Shown piece by piece: positions 5,563 through 15,544 of a DNA stretch of 64,000 nt (positions are counted from its first letter, which is position 1; each line of letters starts with the position of its first letter). The stretch is from Candidatus Undinarchaeota archaeon (GTDB taxonomy: Archaea; SpSt-1190; JASMDC01), in assembly GCA_964519305.1 (NCBI GenBank), contig CAZFHY010000008.1, forward strand, positions 64,001 through 128,000, read 5' to 3'. The translations under genes and the position numbers were made by a program. A model generated the notes under the pieces. The model ran no database searches. It saw only the letters and a list, made by a program, of their open reading frames with translations, and was not told where the DNA came from.

Positions 5563-7425
5563 TTATCCCATGAGGAATAAGTTCGCGCCTTCCCCTACAC
5601 CGGATTCCAGGAGGGATGCGTCGTCCTTGAGCACCTTCTCCCCGAAAACGAGGTCCAGGCGTGAGCTATCAGGAAGGCCGAGCGTAGAGCGGAGCTGGAC
5701 CTTGAGCGTGGAGACCGTCTGGTCCTCGGGTATGGATACGTTAGTGTCCTTTCCCCCCTCGATCGGTGATACGATGAGGTTTACCATCTTGACCTGCCGT
5801 TCCACGGCCGCGAGGTTCTGGCCTTTCTTGAGACCGAGCTCACCTACTTGCGTGGTGCTGGGGACGACCGCACCCTTGAGCTGGGCAACGAGCACTCCGT
5901 TCACACCGACGCGCGTTTTGAGGTTGCTGAGCAGATCGCCTACCGTCGATTCGGCCGAGACGTTTATCGTGTGGACGTTCCCCGCGAGCTGTACACCAAC
6001 GGTGATGAGCTTGTTGAGACGCAATCCAGCGCCCTTGTCGAGCCTAGCAGGATCTACAATGAAATCAGGATTAAGGAACACAGGGCCCTGTGAGAGCACG
6101 TAGTCACCCGTCAGACTGCATCGGGTCTTGAGGAGATCGATGGTCTGGGCAGCAGTGATCCTCCCGGGTACCCCGAACCGTTTCGTCCCACCGATCTCAG
6201 GGATGAACACGGCCAACTGTGCCACGGCCTGTATGGTGACCTCGTCCCCGCTTACAAGACCTGCCTGGCTCACGGTACTCTCTCTGTCAAAAGATTGTCC
6301 TCCACGAACAAGGATGGTGTCCGCGAGCTTGAGACCCGCTTTATTGATAACAGCATCGGCAACGTCCCCGAGGCGTGTCTCCGGGCTTACTGAGTGGACC
6401 ATGGTCCCTCTGTTAGCGGGGAGCGTCACCCGTAGCTGGATGAAGTCCGCGCACACATCAGAGAATTTGAGCCCGGCGTAGATCTCGGGATCGTCGATAT
6501 CCGGGGCGCGATCAGAGGGCACGAGCGCTAACCTACGACCGTGAACGAGGAGATTCGTGCGCTCCCACGTCCCTTCCTGCGAGCGGTCAAGGTCCATTAG
6601 CACGTAGCCCTCACTTTCCCCTGCCATTTTGAAATGCTGGAGCACAAGCTCCTTGAGCGTTGTCTGCTCGAAAAGAGGTGATGTTGGATTGGGCAGGATC
6701 GATTTCAGAGGCTCGATCGGGAACACGAGGAACTCCTTTCCCGGTTCGCCGTCCTGCCAGCCGGTCACGTACACCTGGAACTTCACACCCTGGTGGGCTG
6801 AAAAACACTTCGGGCAGCGGTTACGCTGCAGGTCAAGGACGTTCCCGCATCGGACGCAGACCGTGTGCTGTGCGTCAGCCTGCTGGGTCGTCGCATAGAC
6901 CTTTCCGGACGCTAGGAGCTTGCCGATCACTAGGTTACGTAGGAGGGTCTGCTGTTCTCCACGAAGCTTGGCGATATAGGCCCTTGCTACGTTATCCGGG
7001 ACATCGACCAGCCCTTGTAGCTCAGATACCTGCATACGTTGTATGCTGGCGACCGCCTGATTGAGGAAGGGATTGATCCCCATCTCGGCCCGCTTTGTGA
7101 GCTTTATCCTGTTGCTGCGATACTTGCTGGCGGCCATCTCGGAGAGAAGCTCCACGGTACTTGGATAGGTCCATGTGGTGGGTACCTCTACGTTGAGCAC
7201 GAAGTCCCCCTCCTCCTCGGTGACCCAGGTCTTGGCCCTCTCTAGTACATAATGGACATATAGACCGATGGACTTGAGCCTGTAGATACGCGATAGGTGG
7301 TAGACGGATCCGACGATGCGTGTGAAGTTCTCTAGCAGGGCCTGTCCCGGGTCGTTGGGGTCGAAGGGGTGGACCTGAAAGACCTCATCAATGTTCGCAA
7401 GACGGAAATAATACATCCCTGTCAT
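5563..7425 (-). CDS. Zn-ribbon protein with tandem ubiquitin-like (beta-grasp) domains
   Basis: CVRC...CPKC at aa190-207. Four ~70-aa units with the Ubl pattern (aa~329-400, 402-471, 473-543, 547-620), e.g. VSIPEDQTVSTLKVQL...LDLVFGEKVLKDDASLLESGVGEGANLFL. Confidence 0.78.
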   Translation of the reverse strand: MTGMYYFRLANIDEVFQVHPFDPNDPGQALLENFTRIVGSVYHLSRIYRLKSIGLYVHYVLERAKTWVTEEEGDFVLNVEVPTTWTYPSTVELLSEMAASKYRSNRIKLTKRAEMGINPFLNQAVASIQRMQVSELQGLVDVPDNVARAYIAKLRGEQQTLLRNLVIGKLLASGKVYATTQQADAQHTVCVRCGNVLDLQRNRCPKCFSAHQGVKFQVYVTGWQDGEPGKEFLVFPIEPLKSILPNPTSPLFEQTTLKELVLQHFKMAGESEGYVLMDLDRSQEGTWERTNLLVHGRRLALVPSDRAPDIDDPEIYAGLKFSDVCADFIQLRVTLPANRGTMVHSVSPETRLGDVADAVINKAGLKLADTILVRGGQSFDRESTVSQAGLVSGDEVTIQAVAQLAVFIPEIGGTKRFGVPGRITAAQTIDLLKTRCSLTGDYVLSQGPVFLNPDFIVDPARLDKGAGLRLNKLITVGVQLAGNVHTINVSAESTVGDLLSNLKTRVGVNGVLVAQLKGAVVPSTTQVGELGLKKGQNLAAVERQVKMVNLIVSPIEGGKDTNVSIPEDQTVSTLKVQLRSTLGLPDSSRLDLVFGEKVLKDDASLLESGVGEGANLFLMG

Positions 7426-7470
7426 AGGTCACGGCTCCCGGGTCCGTCACGATGGGGCACGAATACCTAT

Positions 7471-7480
7471 TTAATATTAA
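7471..7480. promoter_or_regulatory. Palindromic AT box TTAATATTAA, probable bidirectional TATA promoter
   Basis: Perfect 10-bp palindrome in the 76-bp gap between divergent starts 7425(-) and 7502(+). Confidence 0.55.
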
Positions 7481-7501
7481 TCCCCTCCCGATGTCTCAGA
7501 G

Positions 7502-8785
7502 ATGTACGGTGCAGTGGGACTTGGTCAGTGCGGTATGAAGATACTCGACCAGTTGTATATGAACCTGAAGAACGAGAAGACGTTCCTTGACTTCTTCAAA
7601 CAGGACCCGTCAGTGTTCATTACTCCCGTATGTATCACCTCGGGTTTCACCGACTACTACCGTGCATGCCCCAACCTTCGCAAGGCTTTCAAGCTCGATC
7701 CGGTCGTGGGAATCGGGATCGATGGCTCGTGCATCGCCCCTGCCCTGGGAAAGACTGACCAGACAGATTTCGAGGGTCGCGTTAAGGGGGGGATGGGCGC
7801 AACGCCTTGGAAGGGCCACATCCTTCTCGAGGAACACCAGAACGAGTTCCTGAGCGAGTTCCGCCGTCTCCTACACCTTAAGATGGGAGAGAACGGGCCT
7901 CCGGTCATCCTCATGGTGTTCGGTGCAGGGGGCGGTACGGGTTCCGGTACTGCACCTAAGATCGCAGAGTTCCTCAAGCTGGTCTATCCGAACACGCCCA
8001 TCATCGCTGTCGCAGTGCTCCCTGCCGAGGAGAGCGAAGGCTACATGCGTGCATGGAACGCGGTCTGGAACATCACCAAGATGCTCGACCTAGTCGACGG
8101 GCTCATCGTCGTCGATAACCAGGTGGTCCTCGAGCGCGGTCACGGAGCGTTCATCGAGAAGATACCGGTGTTCAACGAGATGGTGGTAGACTCCCTGAAG
8201 AACCTCGTGCTCGACCTCATCGTGTCCATACAGGACTCAACGGGCAAGCTAAACCTGCCCGCTTTCGACATTGCGGACTACATCAGAGCTCTTGCCTATA
8301 TGCCGGGTAAACCCGGTATCGCCTCGATCGGTCGTAGCCAGATGTTCCTTAGCTTCTCGGAGACGCTGCTCCCCTTCTTATCGAAGGACAAGACCCAGCA
8401 GGTCGCCGATGAGACAATGAAGTGCTGGTCGAAACAGCTCATGACCGGGCTGGAAGAGACGCTCCCCGTCTCTGCTGCCATGGTGTTCAAGGTGAACAAG
8501 AAGTACCTGAACAAGGTATACTTCGAGAACATCACCAAGGACCAAGAGTCCCGACTCACTCGCAAGGAGCTCCATCATGGAGTTGTCCCCACCGACAATC
8601 CCGAGATATCCGTAACAACGTCCTTCACCTACAGACCACAGGACGTGAGGCGATTGAAGGAGCTCGAGGTCAAGGGGAACGCGTGGGCCAGAAAGACACT
8701 CCGTGAAGCGAAAAACACCTCACCGGACGAGGCACAAGCGCTATTCGATAACGTTACTGAGATGGAGTTCTTCTCAGGGGGGTAG
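7502..8785 (+). CDS. Tubulin/FtsZ superfamily GTPase (CetZ-like, non-canonical)
   Basis: T1 GLGQCGMKI, T3 GGMGATPWKG, T4 GAGGGTGSG, AVLP, T6 LIVVDN, T7-like FDIADY. Confidence 0.9.
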   Translation: MYGAVGLGQCGMKILDQLYMNLKNEKTFLDFFKQDPSVFITPVCITSGFTDYYRACPNLRKAFKLDPVVGIGIDGSCIAPALGKTDQTDFEGRVKGGMGATPWKGHILLEEHQNEFLSEFRRLLHLKMGENGPPVILMVFGAGGGTGSGTAPKIAEFLKLVYPNTPIIAVAVLPAEESEGYMRAWNAVWNITKMLDLVDGLIVVDNQVVLERGHGAFIEKIPVFNEMVVDSLKNLVLDLIVSIQDSTGKLNLPAFDIADYIRALAYMPGKPGIASIGRSQMFLSFSETLLPFLSKDKTQQVADETMKCWSKQLMTGLEETLPVSAAMVFKVNKKYLNKVYFENITKDQESRLTRKELHHGVVPTDNPEISVTTSFTYRPQDVRRLKELEVKGNAWARKTLREAKNTSPDEAQALFDNVTEMEFFSGG

Positions 8786-8806
8786 GCGATAGCTTCTCCT
8801 CGCTCC

Positions 8807-10759
8807 ATGCATCTCTTCGCATTGGTGCTTGTATGTACAGTGATGATCTCGCCAGCGCTCGCACTGAAGACATGCGATTCGCTGGGCCCTCTTCGAGAGG
8901 GCGCGTCCGAGAACTGCACCTTCCCGCACGTCTCGGCGACCGAGGGCATTGTCGTGGACGTGGACCCTGCATCCGTCGCATCCTACACGACCGTGTCATT
9001 CCCGCCTACGGGCTCCAATTTCGAGGTGATCGTCAATGTGACGGCACCACCTTACCGCCTTGTCGTCGAGAATCCACAGCTCAACCTCACCCTGGTAAAC
9101 CGTACATCCGGTACTGTACGGACATGGGCCACGGTCGAAGTGAAGCCCCGGGAACCGGTCGGACTGCTCTGTCCCGAAGCTCCCATCTCCCTGGACCTCG
9201 GCGATAACCTTGACGTGAGCGCATGGGCCTTCGCCACAGATGCGAACGTATCCGCGACCTTCGATGACTCGGTGCTCAATCTCGAGTACGCCCAGAACGT
9301 CACCAGCATGATCCAGGGCATCGTGAAGCTCGCTTCCTTCCGTGCGATCGGCAGCGGTTCCTCGACCATCACCCTTACGGCAACGGGAGAGGGTGATGTG
9401 GTCCTGGACACATGCGAGATCGAAGCCACGGTAAAGGGGAAGGTAACGGGCCCTGAGGTCGACATACCTGTCGTTCTGCCGACAGCCGAGCTCACGACCA
9501 CTGCTACGGTCCTACAGGGGAACGAGACCTTCAACGCCACTGTGACCTTCACGAATGAACAGCGCACCGACCGCATCCTCACAATCTCTGTGAACACAGA
9601 GGCGTTCGATGTGCTCGGCAGCTGGAAGGACGGGGAGCGGACCGAGCTCCTCGTGATGAAGCCCGTTGCGGGGACTGTCATCGTTCTCACGCTCCGCCCG
9701 CGGTTCAACGGGACGGATACACTGCGCGTCACCTACTCGTTCGAGCGGAACGATACGGTTGAGACACTGGTCCGTGCCCCTATCACAAAGCTGGCCTCGG
9801 GAGCTTTCCAGATTATATTCTCGCGCGACCGCCTCGAGGTGTTCCCCGGCGACACGGTCGATACGACCGTCTCTGTCACCGGAGTTCCTGATATTGTCCT
9901 CCCTCTGAACATAACCGTTACTAGCAGTGAGACGTTTGCATCATCCTCTAAGGTGATTCAGGTCGCATCCGGGAAATCCTATGCGCTAAAAGACCTGGGT
10001 CTCGTACCGACTACTTCAGGTCTCCATGCTATATGTGGCGTTATCAAGGATCTATCGGGCGAAGGATGCACCGAGCTGCTCGTTCGAACACCACTTGTCC
10101 AGAGCCTGGCTGTCGGAACCACGTCACAGCGCACCTTCACCGGGATGGCATCACGGTTCCCGATCTCGATCATACTAACAGGGACGGTACCGGCCGACCT
10201 TGTTCGCATCCTCAAGCTGACCGATACCGGAGGTTGTGCCACAGGTCTGAAGGTGGAAGGCCTGACGGTGGCCAACGAAGGATGGTCCGTGCCCGCACGC
10301 GCAGAGGTCAACGGGACCGTTGTCTACTCTTCAACCGGAGGCGCCTGTGAAGTCTCCGTTAATATCACCTGCACTGACGGCAGGTGCGATGATAGTTCGT
10401 CTTCATTGAGCATCGAGACGGTAGCGCTTGATAGCCTCGCTACGGCCGCGATCTCCGTGGAATCGCTCCATGAACGAGAGGACCTCCTTGGACAGCGTGC
10501 TATTGTTGAGAACGAGCGGGCGAAAAAGGCCAAGACGAACGCCGCGGTAGGTGGCGTTCCGGGCATCCTGTTCGGTTTCGGGCTTGGTGGCCTGCTTGCA
10601 GCTCTGATCGGGTTCGCCATTGTAAGGGGAGCTCCCGTACCAAAGAAAAGCAAGGGGCCGGAGATGAGCGCGAAAGAGGACGTTCCGGCTCATGCCGAGG
10701 TCGACGATGATGAGGCCGAGGATGAAGGCTACTGGGAGGGTGAGGACGATGAGGAATAA
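8807..10759 (+). CDS. Secreted beta-rich (Ig-like) surface protein with C-terminal TM anchor and acidic tail
   Basis: Signal peptide; T/V-rich beta strands; many N-x-S/T sequons; TM GILFGFGLGGLLAALIGFAIV; D/E tail. Confidence 0.8.
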   Translation: MHLFALVLVCTVMISPALALKTCDSLGPLREGASENCTFPHVSATEGIVVDVDPASVASYTTVSFPPTGSNFEVIVNVTAPPYRLVVENPQLNLTLVNRTSGTVRTWATVEVKPREPVGLLCPEAPISLDLGDNLDVSAWAFATDANVSATFDDSVLNLEYAQNVTSMIQGIVKLASFRAIGSGSSTITLTATGEGDVVLDTCEIEATVKGKVTGPEVDIPVVLPTAELTTTATVLQGNETFNATVTFTNEQRTDRILTISVNTEAFDVLGSWKDGERTELLVMKPVAGTVIVLTLRPRFNGTDTLRVTYSFERNDTVETLVRAPITKLASGAFQIIFSRDRLEVFPGDTVDTTVSVTGVPDIVLPLNITVTSSETFASSSKVIQVASGKSYALKDLGLVPTTSGLHAICGVIKDLSGEGCTELLVRTPLVQSLAVGTTSQRTFTGMASRFPISIILTGTVPADLVRILKLTDTGGCATGLKVEGLTVANEGWSVPARAEVNGTVVYSSTGGACEVSVNITCTDGRCDDSSSSLSIETVALDSLATAAISVESLHEREDLLGQRAIVENERAKKAKTNAAVGGVPGILFGFGLGGLLAALIGFAIVRGAPVPKKSKGPEMSAKEDVPAHAEVDDDEAEDEGYWEGEDDEE

Positions 10760-11675
10760 GTACACAGTCCTCCTGCTCTCATTGATACTCATCAGCGGAT
10801 GCACACAGTTCGTGTTCGAGGGCGAACCACCGGCCTGCGAGCCCGATAAGGGTGTTCCCAAGGACTGTATGGATCTTATCAATCCTGTCCGCGGGAGAAT
10901 TGACGCTAAGTTCGTCGAAGGATATGTTGATGATCCTGTCCTGGCCAACGTCTCCATTTGCGAGACGGGAGAACAGGCGCTCAGTGGAGTGACCGGGTGT
11001 ACTCCGGAATCCTTCAAGCATGTCATGTCGGGCTTCATATCAGAGGTCACGCGTGCTGTATCCGGATCGGGACCCCGCGTCGATAAGCTCATCACCGATC
11101 GGATGGAGATATCCTGGGCCACGATATGTGACCGGCCCTCATGTGTACATGATTCGTTGATGACCGCCAGCCGTGCACTAAGGCTATCCCGGTACACAGC
11201 GGACCTGCGCAATGGTACGGTCCCGACGTCGGAAGAGCTCGCGGTATTGACTGTACCCGAGCGCAAGCTCCTTCTCGACTATCCCTCGTTGTACGAGTCG
11301 CGTGTCGTCGAGGCCGGAGAGGAATCACAGAAGAACATCAAGGAATTTGGAGTATCGGGGCTCGGGCCCGAGGCACCTCTTGAGACCTTCAAGGAGGAAC
11401 TCGAGAAGTCCAAGACGTTGTTGGCGGATGAAGGCGAACGTATCCCCGGTCTCGTGACAATGCGGATTCTCCCGGCCGCGCTGGTCGGATGCTTCCTTGT
11501 GCTTATCATCATCATCGCTTACGACCGCAAGTATCGTGCACAGATCGAGTTCTGGAAGACGTTCACAAGCTCCACCAACATCGTCCATCCCCGGTCGGTG
11601 GCCCTAGGTGCCCTGGGGGTGTCTGTTGTACTGGCCATCGCTGGTGCGGTGCTCCTGCTCCTGGGGCGTGGTTGA
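10749..11675 (+). CDS. Putative lipoprotein with two C-terminal TM helices
   Basis: MRNKYTVLLLSLILISGC lipobox; start overlaps upstream gene end; two hydrophobic segments at the C-terminus. Confidence 0.78.
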   Translation: MRNKYTVLLLSLILISGCTQFVFEGEPPACEPDKGVPKDCMDLINPVRGRIDAKFVEGYVDDPVLANVSICETGEQALSGVTGCTPESFKHVMSGFISEVTRAVSGSGPRVDKLITDRMEISWATICDRPSCVHDSLMTASRALRLSRYTADLRNGTVPTSEELAVLTVPERKLLLDYPSLYESRVVEAGEESQKNIKEFGVSGLGPEAPLETFKEELEKSKTLLADEGERIPGLVTMRILPAALVGCFLVLIIIIAYDRKYRAQIEFWKTFTSSTNIVHPRSVALGALGVSVVLAIAGAVLLLLGRG

Positions 11676-14549
11676 ATGGCTCGTCTCAATAGCACGTTAG
11701 TCGTCCTATTGATTCTCCTTTGCTTGTCCGCCGTGGCAGAAGAGTTCAGCATCACGGGCACCGCCCAGGTCATCGCCTCAAAGGAACCATATGATTACGC
11801 GACCGATGCGGACCTTCTCACGGTAAGGATCACCACCAATCAGAACTCACAGGCGCAGGTCAAGGACGACCGTGGCCGTGTCCTCGGTACCGACGCCACC
11901 TGGTCCAAGAACCACGATATCATGATAGGGAAGCTGAGCTCTGGCGGCTACCAGCTCAAGATAGAGGCCTACAATCTGACCGGTAGCCAGGACTATGCAT
12001 TCGTCTCCTTCAACGTGGCAAAAGCTCGTGCCAACCTACGCACGGTCCCGGTAGAGTATACAAAGGACATCGAGATCCCATGTCGCTCTTCTGGAGCCGT
12101 GAAGATAACCGACAGCCTTTCCCTGACGAATCAGGGTAAGCTCGACGCGTACAACGTCGTGGCACAACTGGACTCATCGTACATGTGTAATGAGGATGGG
12201 GATTGTCCCCTGGAGATCAGCCTTGGTGACCGTTACGAGAATAAAATGAGCTTCAGTGAGGTCCGTTCGGCACAGATTCAGTACATCACGCTCAACATGA
12301 AGACCGTGCAGGTCCTCACACCATGGACGACCTACTCGACACCCCTTCGTATCGAGGGTTCGAACGCACTTGAGATAGTCGTGGACCTGAACATTAGGTT
12401 CGTACCGGCGCTGGACGTGAGAGTGAGCCCTGATACGTTCTCATTCGAGAACGCTTGCGGTAACGAGGAACGGACCATTACCATCGAGGACCGCTGCTGC
12501 GTTTTCGACCTGCCATTGGCCGTTGATGTGAACGTGGACGACCATCCGTTCATATTCGATACGACCAGCTATACGGTCCCCAAGTGCGGGAAGGCGACCG
12601 TCGACTTCAGTCTGGCCAACCTCACACTCCTGGAGGGTGAGGAGGAGAAGCAGGATGAATACAAGATCAACCTACGCTTCGGGGATGAAATGCTCCAGAT
12701 CCCCGCCGATGTGTTGGTCCGACCTCCAGAGCTACGTCTGAGCCCCCGGTCGATCGGGCTGGACGCACCCTGCAAGGGAGAGCTCAAACAGCCTATCGAG
12801 CTGTACGTACCTTCCACGTCCGGTTGCGTTCGTGACCTTGAGCTGAACATAACGGGCAATGTCAAGGATTTCACGTTCGAGTTCGAAGCTGAAAAGACAA
12901 ACAACCTGTCTCCTGGTGACCGGATAAGCGGGACCATGAATATTAATGTCCCGAAGTACATCAAGGCAGGCGAGTATGCAGGCCGTCTAGTGGCGAAATA
13001 TCCGCGCACGAAGACCGAAACGGCAAAGAAAGAGATGGTAATGTTCCTACGTGTACCGCGCTTCGACTACCTCCTCAAGTCCGAGAGGGTGGACATGCGT
13101 GAACTCCCTTGTGGTGATTTCCGGGCCCAGAACATTACGATCGTAGAGGTCGATGGGGGTTGTGCCGAGGGGATCACGGGCGAGATAGTGAACTGCGACT
13201 TCAATAATACCTTCATCACCGTCGCCGAGGACACTATCGGTGTGTCGGCAAAGGAGAGCGGTGACTTCGATCTCGAGGTCAACGTGCCCCATTACCTACC
13301 GCCGGATACGTATTCATGCGGGCTGCTCATCACTGTGCCTGAGCGTGGTGACCGTACGATCCCATTCTCCTTCACGATCCCCCATCCACAGCTCATGATA
13401 GAGATGCCGGACAAGCTCACGCTCTACAAGGAACGCCCCCCGTCGATCACGGGTAACACGAGCCTCACTCTGGCAGAGGTGGGCGGGTTCACCCCTCTCC
13501 GGAACATAACGTTCGATGTCGTTGCCAAGGTTTGCCCCGTTGGGGCCGCGGAGGCGTGCGTGCGCTATGCCAAGGCAGTAGAGACGCCCCTGCCCGTGTT
13601 CGAGATCGACAAGGGGAGCCGGCTCACTGTGCCGATAGGCCTTGGGTTCGACTTCTCCGATCCAAGGGGGGATTACACGATGGGTCTTGTAGTCGATGCT
13701 CTGAACGATGACAGGGCCGCAGAGGAGAGACCCATGGAGTTCGAGATCATCCCACCGAGCTGTCGGAAGGCCAGGGACGATATCAAGCTCATCGATAAAC
13801 GGTTCCCAGAAGTGAAAAAGGCTCTGCGCGACTTCCTCGTCCACTGTGATGACTGGTCCAAGCGGGATCCTGTCATGTCTGCGAAAGCCGCATCCCTCGT
13901 ATCATCCTTCTCGGTGTTCTCGACGAACGTGCTCACTCTCAACGAGATGACACGGAGCCATAACCTAACGTCCGTACGCGCTCTCTCAATCCTGCGTTCG
14001 ACCGAGCGTAACCTCGAAGCGTTGTGTATCGATATCGATGAGGCGCGGCCGATCTGCGAGATGGCCAACGCCACGCTCCTGACGACGCTCGAGGAAGTAG
14101 GAAGGTACTACTGCATGAACTCCACGACGCGTTCCGAGCGTCTGCGTCACAACGGTGCCATGTCCAACGTGTTCCTCGAACGTGTGAACCTGCGCTGTAC
14201 GATCATCGACAATCTGGACGTCGTGTCGACGAGGTACGACAACGTCCAAGCGCTCAGGCAGGAGGCATTGGGGGACCGTATCCTTCCGCCTCGTGCGTTG
14301 GAGAAGTACGCTCGACTGATCGCAGAGTACAGGGATATCGAGAAAGGCTATGCTGACCTTGGGCTCACAGATGATGTCGAAAAAGTGAAGGGTGAACGCA
14401 TCATCATCGAGAGCGAACGCGAGGACCTGGCACTGCTCTGGTCGACATTGATCAACGTGGTCGTCGCCTTCGCGTTCATGGTCACGGTCATCATCACTGG
14501 TATGTACGTGCGTTATCGTATCAAGACGCAGAAGGTGCTTGAGCTGTGA
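11676..14549 (+). CDS. Large secreted protein: repeated Ig-like domains, helical stalk, C-terminal TM
   Basis: Signal peptide; ~110-aa beta units with paired Cys; helical last ~260 aa; TM LINVVVAFAFMVTVIITGMY; starts immediately after the upstream stop. Confidence 0.82.
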   Translation: MARLNSTLVVLLILLCLSAVAEEFSITGTAQVIASKEPYDYATDADLLTVRITTNQNSQAQVKDDRGRVLGTDATWSKNHDIMIGKLSSGGYQLKIEAYNLTGSQDYAFVSFNVAKARANLRTVPVEYTKDIEIPCRSSGAVKITDSLSLTNQGKLDAYNVVAQLDSSYMCNEDGDCPLEISLGDRYENKMSFSEVRSAQIQYITLNMKTVQVLTPWTTYSTPLRIEGSNALEIVVDLNIRFVPALDVRVSPDTFSFENACGNEERTITIEDRCCVFDLPLAVDVNVDDHPFIFDTTSYTVPKCGKATVDFSLANLTLLEGEEEKQDEYKINLRFGDEMLQIPADVLVRPPELRLSPRSIGLDAPCKGELKQPIELYVPSTSGCVRDLELNITGNVKDFTFEFEAEKTNNLSPGDRISGTMNINVPKYIKAGEYAGRLVAKYPRTKTETAKKEMVMFLRVPRFDYLLKSERVDMRELPCGDFRAQNITIVEVDGGCAEGITGEIVNCDFNNTFITVAEDTIGVSAKESGDFDLEVNVPHYLPPDTYSCGLLITVPERGDRTIPFSFTIPHPQLMIEMPDKLTLYKERPPSITGNTSLTLAEVGGFTPLRNITFDVVAKVCPVGAAEACVRYAKAVETPLPVFEIDKGSRLTVPIGLGFDFSDPRGDYTMGLVVDALNDDRAAEERPMEFEIIPPSCRKARDDIKLIDKRFPEVKKALRDFLVHCDDWSKRDPVMSAKAASLVSSFSVFSTNVLTLNEMTRSHNLTSVRALSILRSTERNLEALCIDIDEARPICEMANATLLTTLEEVGRYYCMNSTTRSERLRHNGAMSNVFLERVNLRCTIIDNLDVVSTRYDNVQALRQEALGDRILPPRALEKYARLIAEYRDIEKGYADLGLTDDVEKVKGERIIIESEREDLALLWSTLINVVVAFAFMVTVIITGMYVRYRIKTQKVLEL

Positions 14550-15544
14550 GATCGAACGGAACGGCCCGTGTTCTGGCCATTGCGACAGTGGTACTGTTAG
14601 TGATGCTGACGCCGGCATTGGCGGAACCACGACAGTGTCGACAGCTCATCGATCTGTACTCGGAGATAATCGCGCGTGGCCACAGGGACACGTTCATAAC
14701 AGACATCCCGACGGCCTCTTCGGTGTGCCATTTCGCCCGGGACCTCTCCTATCTTTGTGATTCACAGACACTGCCTTCCGGCGAGGACGGTACCTTCGGA
14801 GCCACTTTCCTCTCGTCCACATTTGACTTCATCAATCACACACGGGATACATACTGGGCGATCACTGCGTCATCCCAGACGTATGATCTGAACCCGTCGA
14901 TCGAGAGCTTCGGTATGATCACCGACAACATCGAGGCACTCGCCGAGGACCGGCAGAACCTCACAGTAGCCTCTTTCGAGCATGAGGAGGTCACAGAGGT
15001 CCTCACGAACGTGGACGATACATATGAGGACATCTGCTTCGTCGCTCTCTCCGTGTTCGATGCTATCGTGGAAGGCGAGCCTAACGTTTGCCGTCAGGCC
15101 GAAGTGCTCGGTCTGGTCTCTTCATGGGCGCGCACGTGCACATCGGCCAAGGCAGAGGAGTATGCCTCGCGTCACAAAGAGGCCGTGGAAAGTTGCACGG
15201 CCCATACGAACAATGCCAAGGAGAAGAGCGCTGAGGGTAAACGGCTCATTCAGGACTATGCGGGTTCAGTGTCCTATATCAAGATGATCCGCTACGCTCA
15301 GGGAAAGAGCGCTCTTGAGAGCGCTCGGCGTTCCTATTCGGTCATCGGCCAGCACGACTCCGCCCAAGAGATGATCTACATCTACTGGGACGCCCATGTG
15401 GAGTACAACATAGCGAAGCTCGACTTCGAGAACCTCGTTCAGGTCCTCCTTATCTCGATAATCCTCATCACGGGCGTCGTGGTATTGCTCTATATGCGCT
15501 ACATAATCATCCGTCGTCGCCAAGAGGAGTACTCTGACCTGTAG
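14546..15544 (+). CDS. Secreted helical protein with C-terminal TM anchor
   Basis: GTGA overlap with upstream stop; signal peptide; TM LVQVLLISIILITGVVVLLY followed by RRR. Confidence 0.8.
   Translation: MRSNGTARVLAIATVVLLVMLTPALAEPRQCRQLIDLYSEIIARGHRDTFITDIPTASSVCHFARDLSYLCDSQTLPSGEDGTFGATFLSSTFDFINHTRDTYWAITASSQTYDLNPSIESFGMITDNIEALAEDRQNLTVASFEHEEVTEVLTNVDDTYEDICFVALSVFDAIVEGEPNVCRQAEVLGLVSSWARTCTSAKAEEYASRHKEAVESCTAHTNNAKEKSAEGKRLIQDYAGSVSYIKMIRYAQGKSALESARRSYSVIGQHDSAQEMIYIYWDAHVEYNIAKLDFENLVQVLLISIILITGVVVLLYMRYIIIRRRQEEYSDL

Follow-up and report, generated by a model that had tools for sequence, protein, structure and literature searches.

Of the tubulin-family proteins of archaea, those outside FtsZ and CetZ are almost wholly uncharacterised. 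Patchily distributed, non-canonical members of the tubulin superfamily, DPANN archaea included, have been described (Brown & Duggin 2023, PMC9856176), and the same paper reports CetZ genes in the vicinity of genes for surface proteins and pili. Santana-Molina et al. (2023, PMC9871819) describe CetZ-like proteins in Halobacterota and Altiarchaeota, together with 'Halo.Tub' and 'Asg.Tub' groups that have unknown, often coiled-coil neighbours and occur in quasi-tandem copies; they also cite an association of artubulin with Snf7 in Thaumarchaeota. Two further families are presented by Makarova & Koonin (2010, PMC2875224): FtsZl1, of about 1000 amino acids (aa), with a coiled coil, a helical C-terminal domain, no recognisable T6-H7 and neighbours encoding vWA, GTPase, kinase and OmpA proteins, and FtsZl2, a proteobacterial family described as having no conserved neighbours. 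For the Halo_adaptin loci of Halobacteriales, a role in protein sorting or vesicle formation has been proposed (Makarova et al. 2024, PMC11188069). Here we analyse a locus at positions 5563-15544 of a 64,000-nucleotide (nt) stretch of archaeal DNA (the window, along which all positions are counted unless a contig or locus is named), in which a tubulin-superfamily gene, B, is followed by four genes for surface proteins, C to F, and preceded by a divergent gene, A, for a protein with ubiquitin-like (Ubl) units. The window is part of contig C8 of the source genome, G000 (3.63 Mb, 42 contigs, 99.8% complete, 4.3% contaminated).

The locus is a poorly described archaeal tubulin-plus-surface-protein module, here minimal and flanked by the Ubl gene, and not a wholly new kind of system. 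We regard it as probable, rather than certain, that it is the genus-specific variant of a conserved archaeal module in which a non-canonical tubulin GTPase is combined with immunoglobulin (Ig)-like envelope proteins, exported by signal peptides and anchored at their C-termini, so that a filament organises the cell surface. The case is carried by the identity of B and by the gene that accompanies it in other genomes.

Gene B (7502-8785, forward strand) encodes a protein of 427 aa that a first, sequence-only reading of this DNA had called a tubulin-superfamily GTPase, and the Tubulin profile PF00091 bears this out (E 1.9e-21; score 77.7 bits, cut-off 33). The glycine loops of the tubulin/FtsZ superfamily are present as GLGQCG (T1) and GGGTGSG (T4), followed by D205-N206 and by T7-like D256 and D259, which, on our reading of the alignment, correspond to the T7 aspartates of the FtsZ NxDxxD motif, the acidic residues behind GTP hydrolysis upon polymerisation. 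The protein ends in a C-terminal helix and a tail, ...ALFDNVTEMEFFSGG, whose LFD/E motif is common to three relatives. Matches in the PDB are to chains of the tubulin/FtsZ family at 1e-10 to 1e-8 with no clear favourite, and comprise 3zid_A (the best, 1.1e-10, 'tubulin/FtsZ, GTPase'; we take this chain to be a CetZ), bacterial BtubB, FtsZ and an Asgard tubulin. Against 1.84 billion representative sequences, HMMER returned 224 matches to B at E<=1e-3 and 24 clusters at E<=1e-10; a single cluster lay below 1e-30, a near-identical twin of B. Twenty full-length relatives, at 23-28% identity, align with B from end to end and share the motifs GxGQxG, GGxG, GGGTGxG, VLP, WNA, VDN and the T7-like IDxxD. 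Residues invariant in all 21 members include G6, G8, G11, G145-T146-G147, D205-N206, N225, D256 and D259.

A profile built from the alignment of these 21 members and run on 401 archaeal genomes separated the clade cleanly: the 16 matches that scored 265 bits or more came from 15 of the genomes, and everything else lay at or below 139 bits; the lower matches are CetZ proteins. The CetZ_C domain (PF21011) was found in none of the 21 members at E<=0.01, in neither of two further members, and not in B at E<=0.1. All eight controls were recovered, namely six of six CetZ-clade proteins at 183-232 bits and two paralogues of B in G000 at 27 and 45 bits (cut-off 21.6). A quick maximum-likelihood tree of 69 sequences (IQ-TREE, which warns of long-branch joins) places B in a clade of 39 rows, one of them a mis-called open reading frame (ORF; L046) to be disregarded, with an SH-aLRT (Shimodaira-Hasegawa-like approximate likelihood ratio test) support of 100 and a stem of 1.35. 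This clade stands apart from that of CetZ (14 rows, support 99) and is its sister with a support of 80. The nearest neighbour of B is a protein of genome G040 (support 91), both sitting on long branches. An atlas search put B among CetZ/tubulin clusters, which is uninformative. The FtsZ equivalog TIGR00065 gave B 42.2 bits against a cut-off of 295.2, so that an assignment to FtsZ is rejected; CetZ is likewise rejected, since B has no CetZ_C domain and lies outside the CetZ clade. B is thus a member of a small, discrete clade of non-canonical tubulin-superfamily GTPases distinct from both. Among its sequence clusters, one has a member named by its source as Candidatus Altiarchaeales and another as Methanophagales.

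The clade has a constant companion. When all ORFs in stretches of up to 20 kb around the clade genes of 13 other genomes were clustered, one family of long proteins matched gene product E (E 7e-9 by BLAST, 2.8e-17 by family hidden Markov model (HMM)), the alignment covering the last three beta-sandwich domains of E, its helical region and its transmembrane segment. A profile of this family matches strongly (E<=8e-52) in 15 of the 401 genomes, exactly those that have the clade of B. Ten of the 15 contributed sequences to the query; G001, G105, G298, G364 and G373 contributed none and were still found. Elsewhere among the 401 there are four weak single-domain hits to unrelated long proteins (1e-9 to 1e-11), and in the other 386 genomes neither a clade member nor a strong E-family match was detected. 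The two genes are adjacent wherever contigs allow. Identical occurrence in 15 of 401 genomes and the usual side-by-side placement together indicate a conserved link between cytoskeleton and surface. The class that holds most of these genomes was surveyed separately: the tubulin gene is present in 23 of 38 genomes, and in 14 of the 21 of high quality, which marks the module as a lineage trait and not a stray.

In this main class the module has a fixed order, seen at 11 loci (L018 and L051-L060; for example L056:3557-13326): a long and a short E-like gene, then divergently tubulin-1 (about 400 aa), a membrane protein with an N-terminal transmembrane region (family F3, 430-480 aa) and tubulin-2 (about 445 aa). 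The upstream pair, of 306-344 aa and 646-757 aa, each have a signal-like N-terminus and a C-terminal transmembrane segment; in two of the 11 loci the contig ends there, and in two more the ORF calls give only the long E-like protein. Tubulin-2 is very divergent, its match to PF00091 (1.4e-7, 32.4 bits) falling just under the cut-off of 33. By analogy with alpha- and beta-tubulin, tubulin-1 and tubulin-2 could form a heterodimer. A protein of 810-917 aa with a PQQ/WD40 propeller (PQQ_2 1.9e-13) and Ig-like domains neighbours the module in five loci, four of the main class and that of G364.

Other lineages arrange the same kinds of gene differently. In G040, the source of the nearest relative of B, an E-like gene, a gene for a 322-aa transmembrane protein, one for a 212-aa protein and the tubulin gene follow one another on one strand. 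The G364 string runs from the propeller-Ig protein through a tubulin-2-like gene and three anchored or transmembrane proteins to the tubulin. At L062 and L065-L067, too, the neighbours of the tubulin gene encode proteins that combine a signal peptide with a C-terminal transmembrane segment. Scanning metagenomes with B and the three relatives most similar to it recovered one contig of the same organism group carrying the whole locus, A included, and three contigs of another type (L065:3-6041, L066:3247-8350 and L067:782-7049) whose tubulin-like proteins are 27-29% identical; the tubulin cluster of these three has a member named by its source as Methanophagales archaeon.

Six long ORFs fill 5563-15544 in the window, A leftward and B to F rightward. 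C (8807-10759, 650 aa), D (10749-11675, 308 aa, starting at the second ATG of ORF 10692-11675), E (11676-14549, 957 aa) and F (14546-15544, 332 aa) follow B on the forward strand, with gaps of 21, -11, 0 and -4 nt at B/C, C/D, D/E and E/F; judging by these overlaps, B-C-D-E-F is predicted to be one translationally coupled operon. All six genes are under purifying selection relative to the same-genus genome G001, with ratios of nonsynonymous to synonymous substitution rates (dN/dS) of 0.12 for A, 0.05 for B, 0.16 for C, 0.15 for D, 0.15 for E and 0.10 for F, and values in this range identify them as real genes under constraint. Protein identity to G001 is 85-97%, highest for B (97%). Upstream lie a glycosyltransferase-like gene and other enzymes, and downstream a convergent gene for a metallo-beta-lactamase-fold protein; with flanks this ordinary, the unit is bounded where the sequence-only reading had put its limits. 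That reading also had the six genes, their coordinates and spacings right, together with the 76-bp divergent gap between A and B, and its remark that the locus has no vWA, FtsK or AAA gene agrees with Pfam and family-profile scans, in which none of these domains matched any of the six proteins. G+C is flat across the locus (0.56-0.58), so composition gives no sign of import and a recent horizontally acquired island was set aside; so was a defence system, PADLOC having matched none of A to F.

C, D, E and F had been described as exported and C-terminally anchored, and hydropathy agrees. C, E and F each have a hydrophobic, signal-like segment at the N-terminus and one C-terminal transmembrane segment followed by a short basic or acidic cytoplasmic tail. 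E has a signal peptide, tandem Ig-like beta-sandwiches, a helical membrane-proximal region, one transmembrane segment and a 12-residue tail, with 12 N-glycosylation sequons in the protein. Its AlphaFold2 model has a predicted local distance difference test (pLDDT) score of 53.5 overall and of 65-86 for residues ~355-692, and contains three beta-sandwich domains, the helical region and the transmembrane helix. The top Foldseek matches of the model, at E 3e-17 to 1e-8 and with low TM-scores, are to tandem Ig-like proteins, among them proteins of the ciliary central apparatus, cadherins and an RTX adhesin, from which we take only that the modelled ectodomain is probably tandem Ig-like, and claim nothing finer. 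C has 13 N-x-S/T sequons, a transmembrane segment at ~579-611 and no Pfam family match. Of the 42 residues of its predicted cytoplasmic tail (609-650; 10636-10759), 17 are acidic, and the tail ends in ...GYWEGEDDEE; eukaryotic tubulins have similarly acidic C-terminal tails, which this one recalls, except that here it is on a membrane protein and not on the tubulin homologue. D has a lipobox-like LISGC motif and two C-terminal transmembrane segments joined by a short loop, and its sole match outside the genus is a weak one, to the protein of the same topology beside the clade gene in L065 (BLAST E 0.002 in the transmembrane region; hhalign probability 9%). F combines a mostly polar, probably helical ectodomain with a 14-residue tail. 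In size, topology and position it corresponds to the short E-like paralogue of other loci; no sequence similarity between the two was detected, nor was any found between F and E. C, D and F were found in this genus only.

A mechanism can be proposed for the module. B would bind GTP and polymerise head-to-tail under the membrane, as its intact T1, T4, T6 and T7 residues suggest. Either a partner that recognises the conserved C-terminal tail of B or the cytoplasmic parts of C and D would attach the filament to the membrane, and the filament would position, cluster or move a complex of the C, D, E and F ectodomains, or shape the membrane beneath it, much as FtsZ, MreB and CetZ filaments organise envelope machinery. 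A would be a soluble multi-beta-grasp protein transcribed from the common spacer. A role as an appendage or in host contact, as the sequence-only reading had offered, is conjecture. Its broader proposal of a cytoskeleton-driven apparatus across the envelope holds in so far as co-occurrence and adjacency tie the tubulin-like protein to a surface protein; its Ubl array as the linker found no support. Its expectation that the surface genes would be conserved with the GTPase clade is borne out for E and fails for the genus-specific C, D and F.

Several observations weigh against the proposal that a filament of B organises the surface. The window has neither the F3 membrane protein of the main module nor the second tubulin paralogue, which leaves the membrane-coupling step without an identified part here. 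E is the only one of the four surface genes conserved with the clade, and when C, D and F were set against every neighbour of a clade member, BLAST, family HMMs and hhalign gave nothing above chance. One class supplies 11 of the 15 co-occurring genomes, which brings the independent lineages down to about four or five, and the branch of B is long enough (1.69) to make its exact placement unsure. The transmembrane and signal calls come from a Kyte-Doolittle hydropathy scan, a simple method. Finally, the sequencing runs listed as carrying the locus are eight DNA runs from two studies, seven of which may be its source, with no RNA run among them.

The alternative that survives best takes the module for a membrane-remodelling, vesicle or sorting system of an 'adaptin-like' kind linked to the endosomal-sorting machinery ESCRT, in a lineage that has lost ESCRT-III and Vps4 and gained the multi-Ubl gene at the same upstream position. 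In systems of that kind a filament of CetZ-like protein works with ESCRT-III/Vps4 and with Ig-like proteins that bind cargo. The contigs L065-L067 make membrane remodelling a serious rival. In all three, a Vps4-like ATPase (AAA 5e-43, Vps4_C 1e-6) and a Snf7/PspA-like protein (PspA 5.7e-8, Snf7 7.4e-6) directly precede the clade member, which is followed by a coiled-coil protein with two transmembrane segments, a protein of the topology of D (a signal peptide and two C-terminal transmembrane segments), a further coiled-coil protein and an anchored protein of 523-547 aa with TSP3 calcium-binding repeats. Vps4 and ESCRT-III, like the propeller-Ig protein that flanks the module in five loci, are among the parts listed for Halo_adaptin (PMC11188069), where a non-canonical CetZ-like protein, two additional Ig-like proteins and a membrane protein are also present. 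However, neither Snf7 (PF03357) nor Vps4_C (PF09336) has a match anywhere in G000, and the main-class module, whose flanks were read for 10 kb on each side, is surrounded by housekeeping genes with no Vps4 or ESCRT-III. This argues for a core function independent of ESCRT. Moreover, the signal peptides and positive-inside tails place the Ig-like domains outside the cell, a poor fit to a cytoplasmic cargo adaptor. On balance we think an ESCRT-linked system of this kind unlikely, while keeping it at the head of the alternatives.

Another possibility, which overlaps with the filament-organised surface proposed above, is that A physically connects the filament of B to the membrane complex as an adaptor. 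A (5563-7425, reverse strand) is a soluble protein of 620 aa, with an N-terminal domain (1-180) that has no family match, a Cys4 zinc ribbon and about five beta-grasp (Ubl) units. The ribbon, CxxC...CxxC at 190-207 (C190, C193, C204 and C207), is invariant in three orthologues, and the sequence-only reading had recognised it. The same reading's array of Ubl domains is backed by sequence matches for three units, and two others have a different basis. The last unit (545-620) matches ubiquitin, PF00240, at 1.4e-8 (residues 557-619, 35.3 bits against a cut-off of 25.4), which places A among beta-grasp proteins; the unit at 473-544 matches OTU1_UBXL (8e-4), residues 479-616 align to both Ubl domains of ISG15 (6.6e-4), and 331-399 matches a ubiquitin variant (1.1e-3). 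The units at 214-305 and 403-472 are assigned from spacing and predicted strand/helix pattern only. The AlphaFold2 model of A, made from three near-identical sequences, has a mean pLDDT of 31.4, too low for a fold search.

A could act as an adaptor in the manner of a microtubule-associated protein, one beta-grasp unit per filament subunit, or it could resemble EsaB/YukD as a Ubl scaffold that is not conjugated. In doublecortin and in tubulin cofactors B and E, tubulin or microtubules are bound by beta-grasp domains. A has no transmembrane segment, ends in ...LFLMG with a single glycine and no di-glycine, and has no E1 or E2 gene among its neighbours; the protein thus differs from conjugated members of the ubiquitin family, and such an end fits a non-covalent role. 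It is also constrained, as its dN/dS shows, and it shares with B a 76-bp divergent spacer (7426-7501) whose sole AT-rich box, TATTTAATATTAAT at 7468-7481, encloses a perfect 10-bp palindrome, TTAATATTAA, at 7471-7480, much as the sequence-only reading had seen. The box is centred 26 nt upstream of the ATG of B. Archaeal TATA elements lie at such a spacing, and by that analogy the box is likely to be a shared TATA-type promoter element; if so, the B transcript would be nearly leaderless. A promoter and terminator scan gave counts at the level of shuffled sequence, with a bacterial sigma-70 promoter model that is inapplicable to archaea. A is probably co-regulated with B and may bind the filament or its partners, the link between them being adjacency.

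The distribution of A argues the other way. A near-length search with the whole protein returned one 91%-identical cluster and no relative beyond the genus; its first 230 residues again found only that cluster, with none among shorter proteins, and its N-terminal 213 residues gave no usable match in an atlas search. In G000 the single PF00240 match is A; the clade-bearing genomes G040, G017, G241 and G364 gave none, and no Ubl gene accompanies the clade in any of these four. The prediction that the Ubl gene would travel with the GTPase clade therefore fails. The A-B arrangement is kept in G001 and in L064, a metagenome contig of the same organism group, but these sequences are 91-97% identical to the window and the synteny carries no weight. 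As for EsaB/YukD, those adaptors come with a YukD match and an FtsK/EssC ATPase, whereas A reaches just 16.6-18.7 bits with YukD (PF08817; cut-off 27) and the locus has no such ATPase. A complex prediction of B with residues 473-620 of A returned 'no answer', with scores of 0.00 and 0.00, and weighs neither way. We accordingly doubt that A is the adaptor, and place this idea below the ESCRT-linked one.

A bolder version brings in a second protein of G000. On contig C6 (121560-123797; L069:2061-4298, reverse strand) lies an ORF of 745 aa, its true start probably near residue 131, with five UBC-fold repeats that each carry a YPxxPP-type motif. Its Pfam matches are UQ_con (3e-22), UEV (7e-9) and RWD (1e-7), no HPN...Cys catalytic motif was seen in it, and the string of genes to which it belongs, all on one strand, also encodes LonB and two large proteins with signal peptides. 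It is the only UBC-fold protein found in G000 and is encoded on a different contig from A. The apparent pairing of a five-unit UEV-like protein with the five-unit Ubl protein A is suggestive. Conceivably, then, a non-Asgard archaeon couples a tubulin-type filament to its envelope by non-covalent Ubl-fold recognition, the array of A being read by this five-unit, non-catalytic UBC/UEV/RWD-like protein, and both together replacing the ESCRT-III and Vps4 of the sister loci. If true, the sorting and scaffolding logic of ubiquitin and UEV would here be wired to a tubulin homologue; we consider it a long shot.

That B and the surface genes adjoin without functional meaning, B being one more shape or division paralogue in a genome with five other tubulin-family genes and in archaea, where surface-protein genes are common, is very improbable, given the exact co-occurrence in 15 of 401 genomes, the repeated neighbouring in different gene orders and the overlapping reading frames.

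Those five other tubulin-family genes of G000 are three of FtsZ type and the two with CetZ_C. One of the latter, at C1:34169-43318, lies beside genes for signal-peptide proteins of 937 and 625 aa and a 670-aa protein with transmembrane segments at both ends; the other, at C15:17183-25310, is beside several polytopic membrane proteins. The genome is itself unusual in size. G000 has 3.63 Mb and its congener about 3.8 Mb, while 15 sampled genomes of the same class span 0.6-1.2 Mb; by its size G000 would be an exception, probably free-living, in a class known for reduced genomes. Contamination is 4-6%, so the size depends on sound binning.

A clade of tubulin-family proteins outside FtsZ and CetZ now has a firm partner: among the 401 genomes sampled, the clade and an anchored Ig-like surface protein never occur one without the other. 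The clade is found in several operon types, one of them with Vps4 and ESCRT-III. These settings suggest a filament system for organising the cell surface or remodelling the membrane, and have a bearing on the way in which cytoskeleton, ESCRT and ubiquitin-fold proteins joined forces before eukaryotes. The version in the window is the smallest of these forms and the oddest: it has a single tubulin gene, lacks ESCRT and is flanked by a unique multi-Ubl gene.

The sequence-only reading did not recognise this exact combination of genes, and our literature search likewise found no operon of Ubl, tubulin-like and anchored surface genes and no two-tubulin module, although the supplementary tables of PMC11188069, PMC9871819 and PMC9856176 may list such genes; nor did the main texts yield a description of the co-occurrence of the clade with the E family. 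FtsZl1 and FtsZl2 resemble B in being extra tubulin-superfamily paralogues for which membrane remodelling together with membrane-associated neighbours has been proposed, in the parts of PMC2875224 that describe them. We reject FtsZl1, since B, at 427 aa, retains the T7 aspartates and lacks all of the FtsZl1 neighbours, vWA included, and FtsZl2, a proteobacterial family. With CetZ, B shares the tubulin/FtsZ GTPase domain and a sister-clade relationship; CetZ differs in possessing CetZ_C, and the clade of B has its own stem and its own conserved neighbourhood. The CetZ-like, Halo.Tub and non-canonical groups of the literature, compared here by their descriptions, are likely to be identical with the clade of B, and the published quasi-tandem copies fit the tubulin-1/tubulin-2 pairs (PMC9871819); the main text of that paper and of PMC9856176 gives no account of a conserved surface-protein partner or a Ubl gene. 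Artubulin loci are like L065-L067 in that a divergent archaeal tubulin-family gene adjoins an ESCRT-III gene, but artubulins are described as close to eukaryotic tubulins, whereas the clade of B lies beside CetZ and neither the window nor the genome has an ESCRT gene.

The locus is thus not an FtsZl1, FtsZl2 or CetZ operon, in keeping with the sequence-only reading, but it does resemble the CetZ-like, Ig-like and membrane-protein portion of the Halo_adaptin loci as printed. The differences from those loci are several. The Vps4 and ESCRT-III/PspA genes of Halo_adaptin are absent from the locus, G000 has no Vps4_C or Snf7 match, A to F have no propeller match (no search was aimed at winged-helix proteins), and the multi-Ubl gene of the window is not mentioned in the main text on Halo_adaptin (PMC11188069). 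Relatives of our locus nevertheless carry further Halo_adaptin parts, either the PQQ/WD40 propeller with Ig-like domains or Vps4 with ESCRT-III. We therefore take Halo_adaptin, by its overlapping list of parts, to be the closest described system, its CetZ-like proteins being likened to B by their published description. In both, a non-canonical CetZ-like gene, here B, stands amid genes for Ig-like proteins and a membrane protein, here E and the anchored C, D and F.

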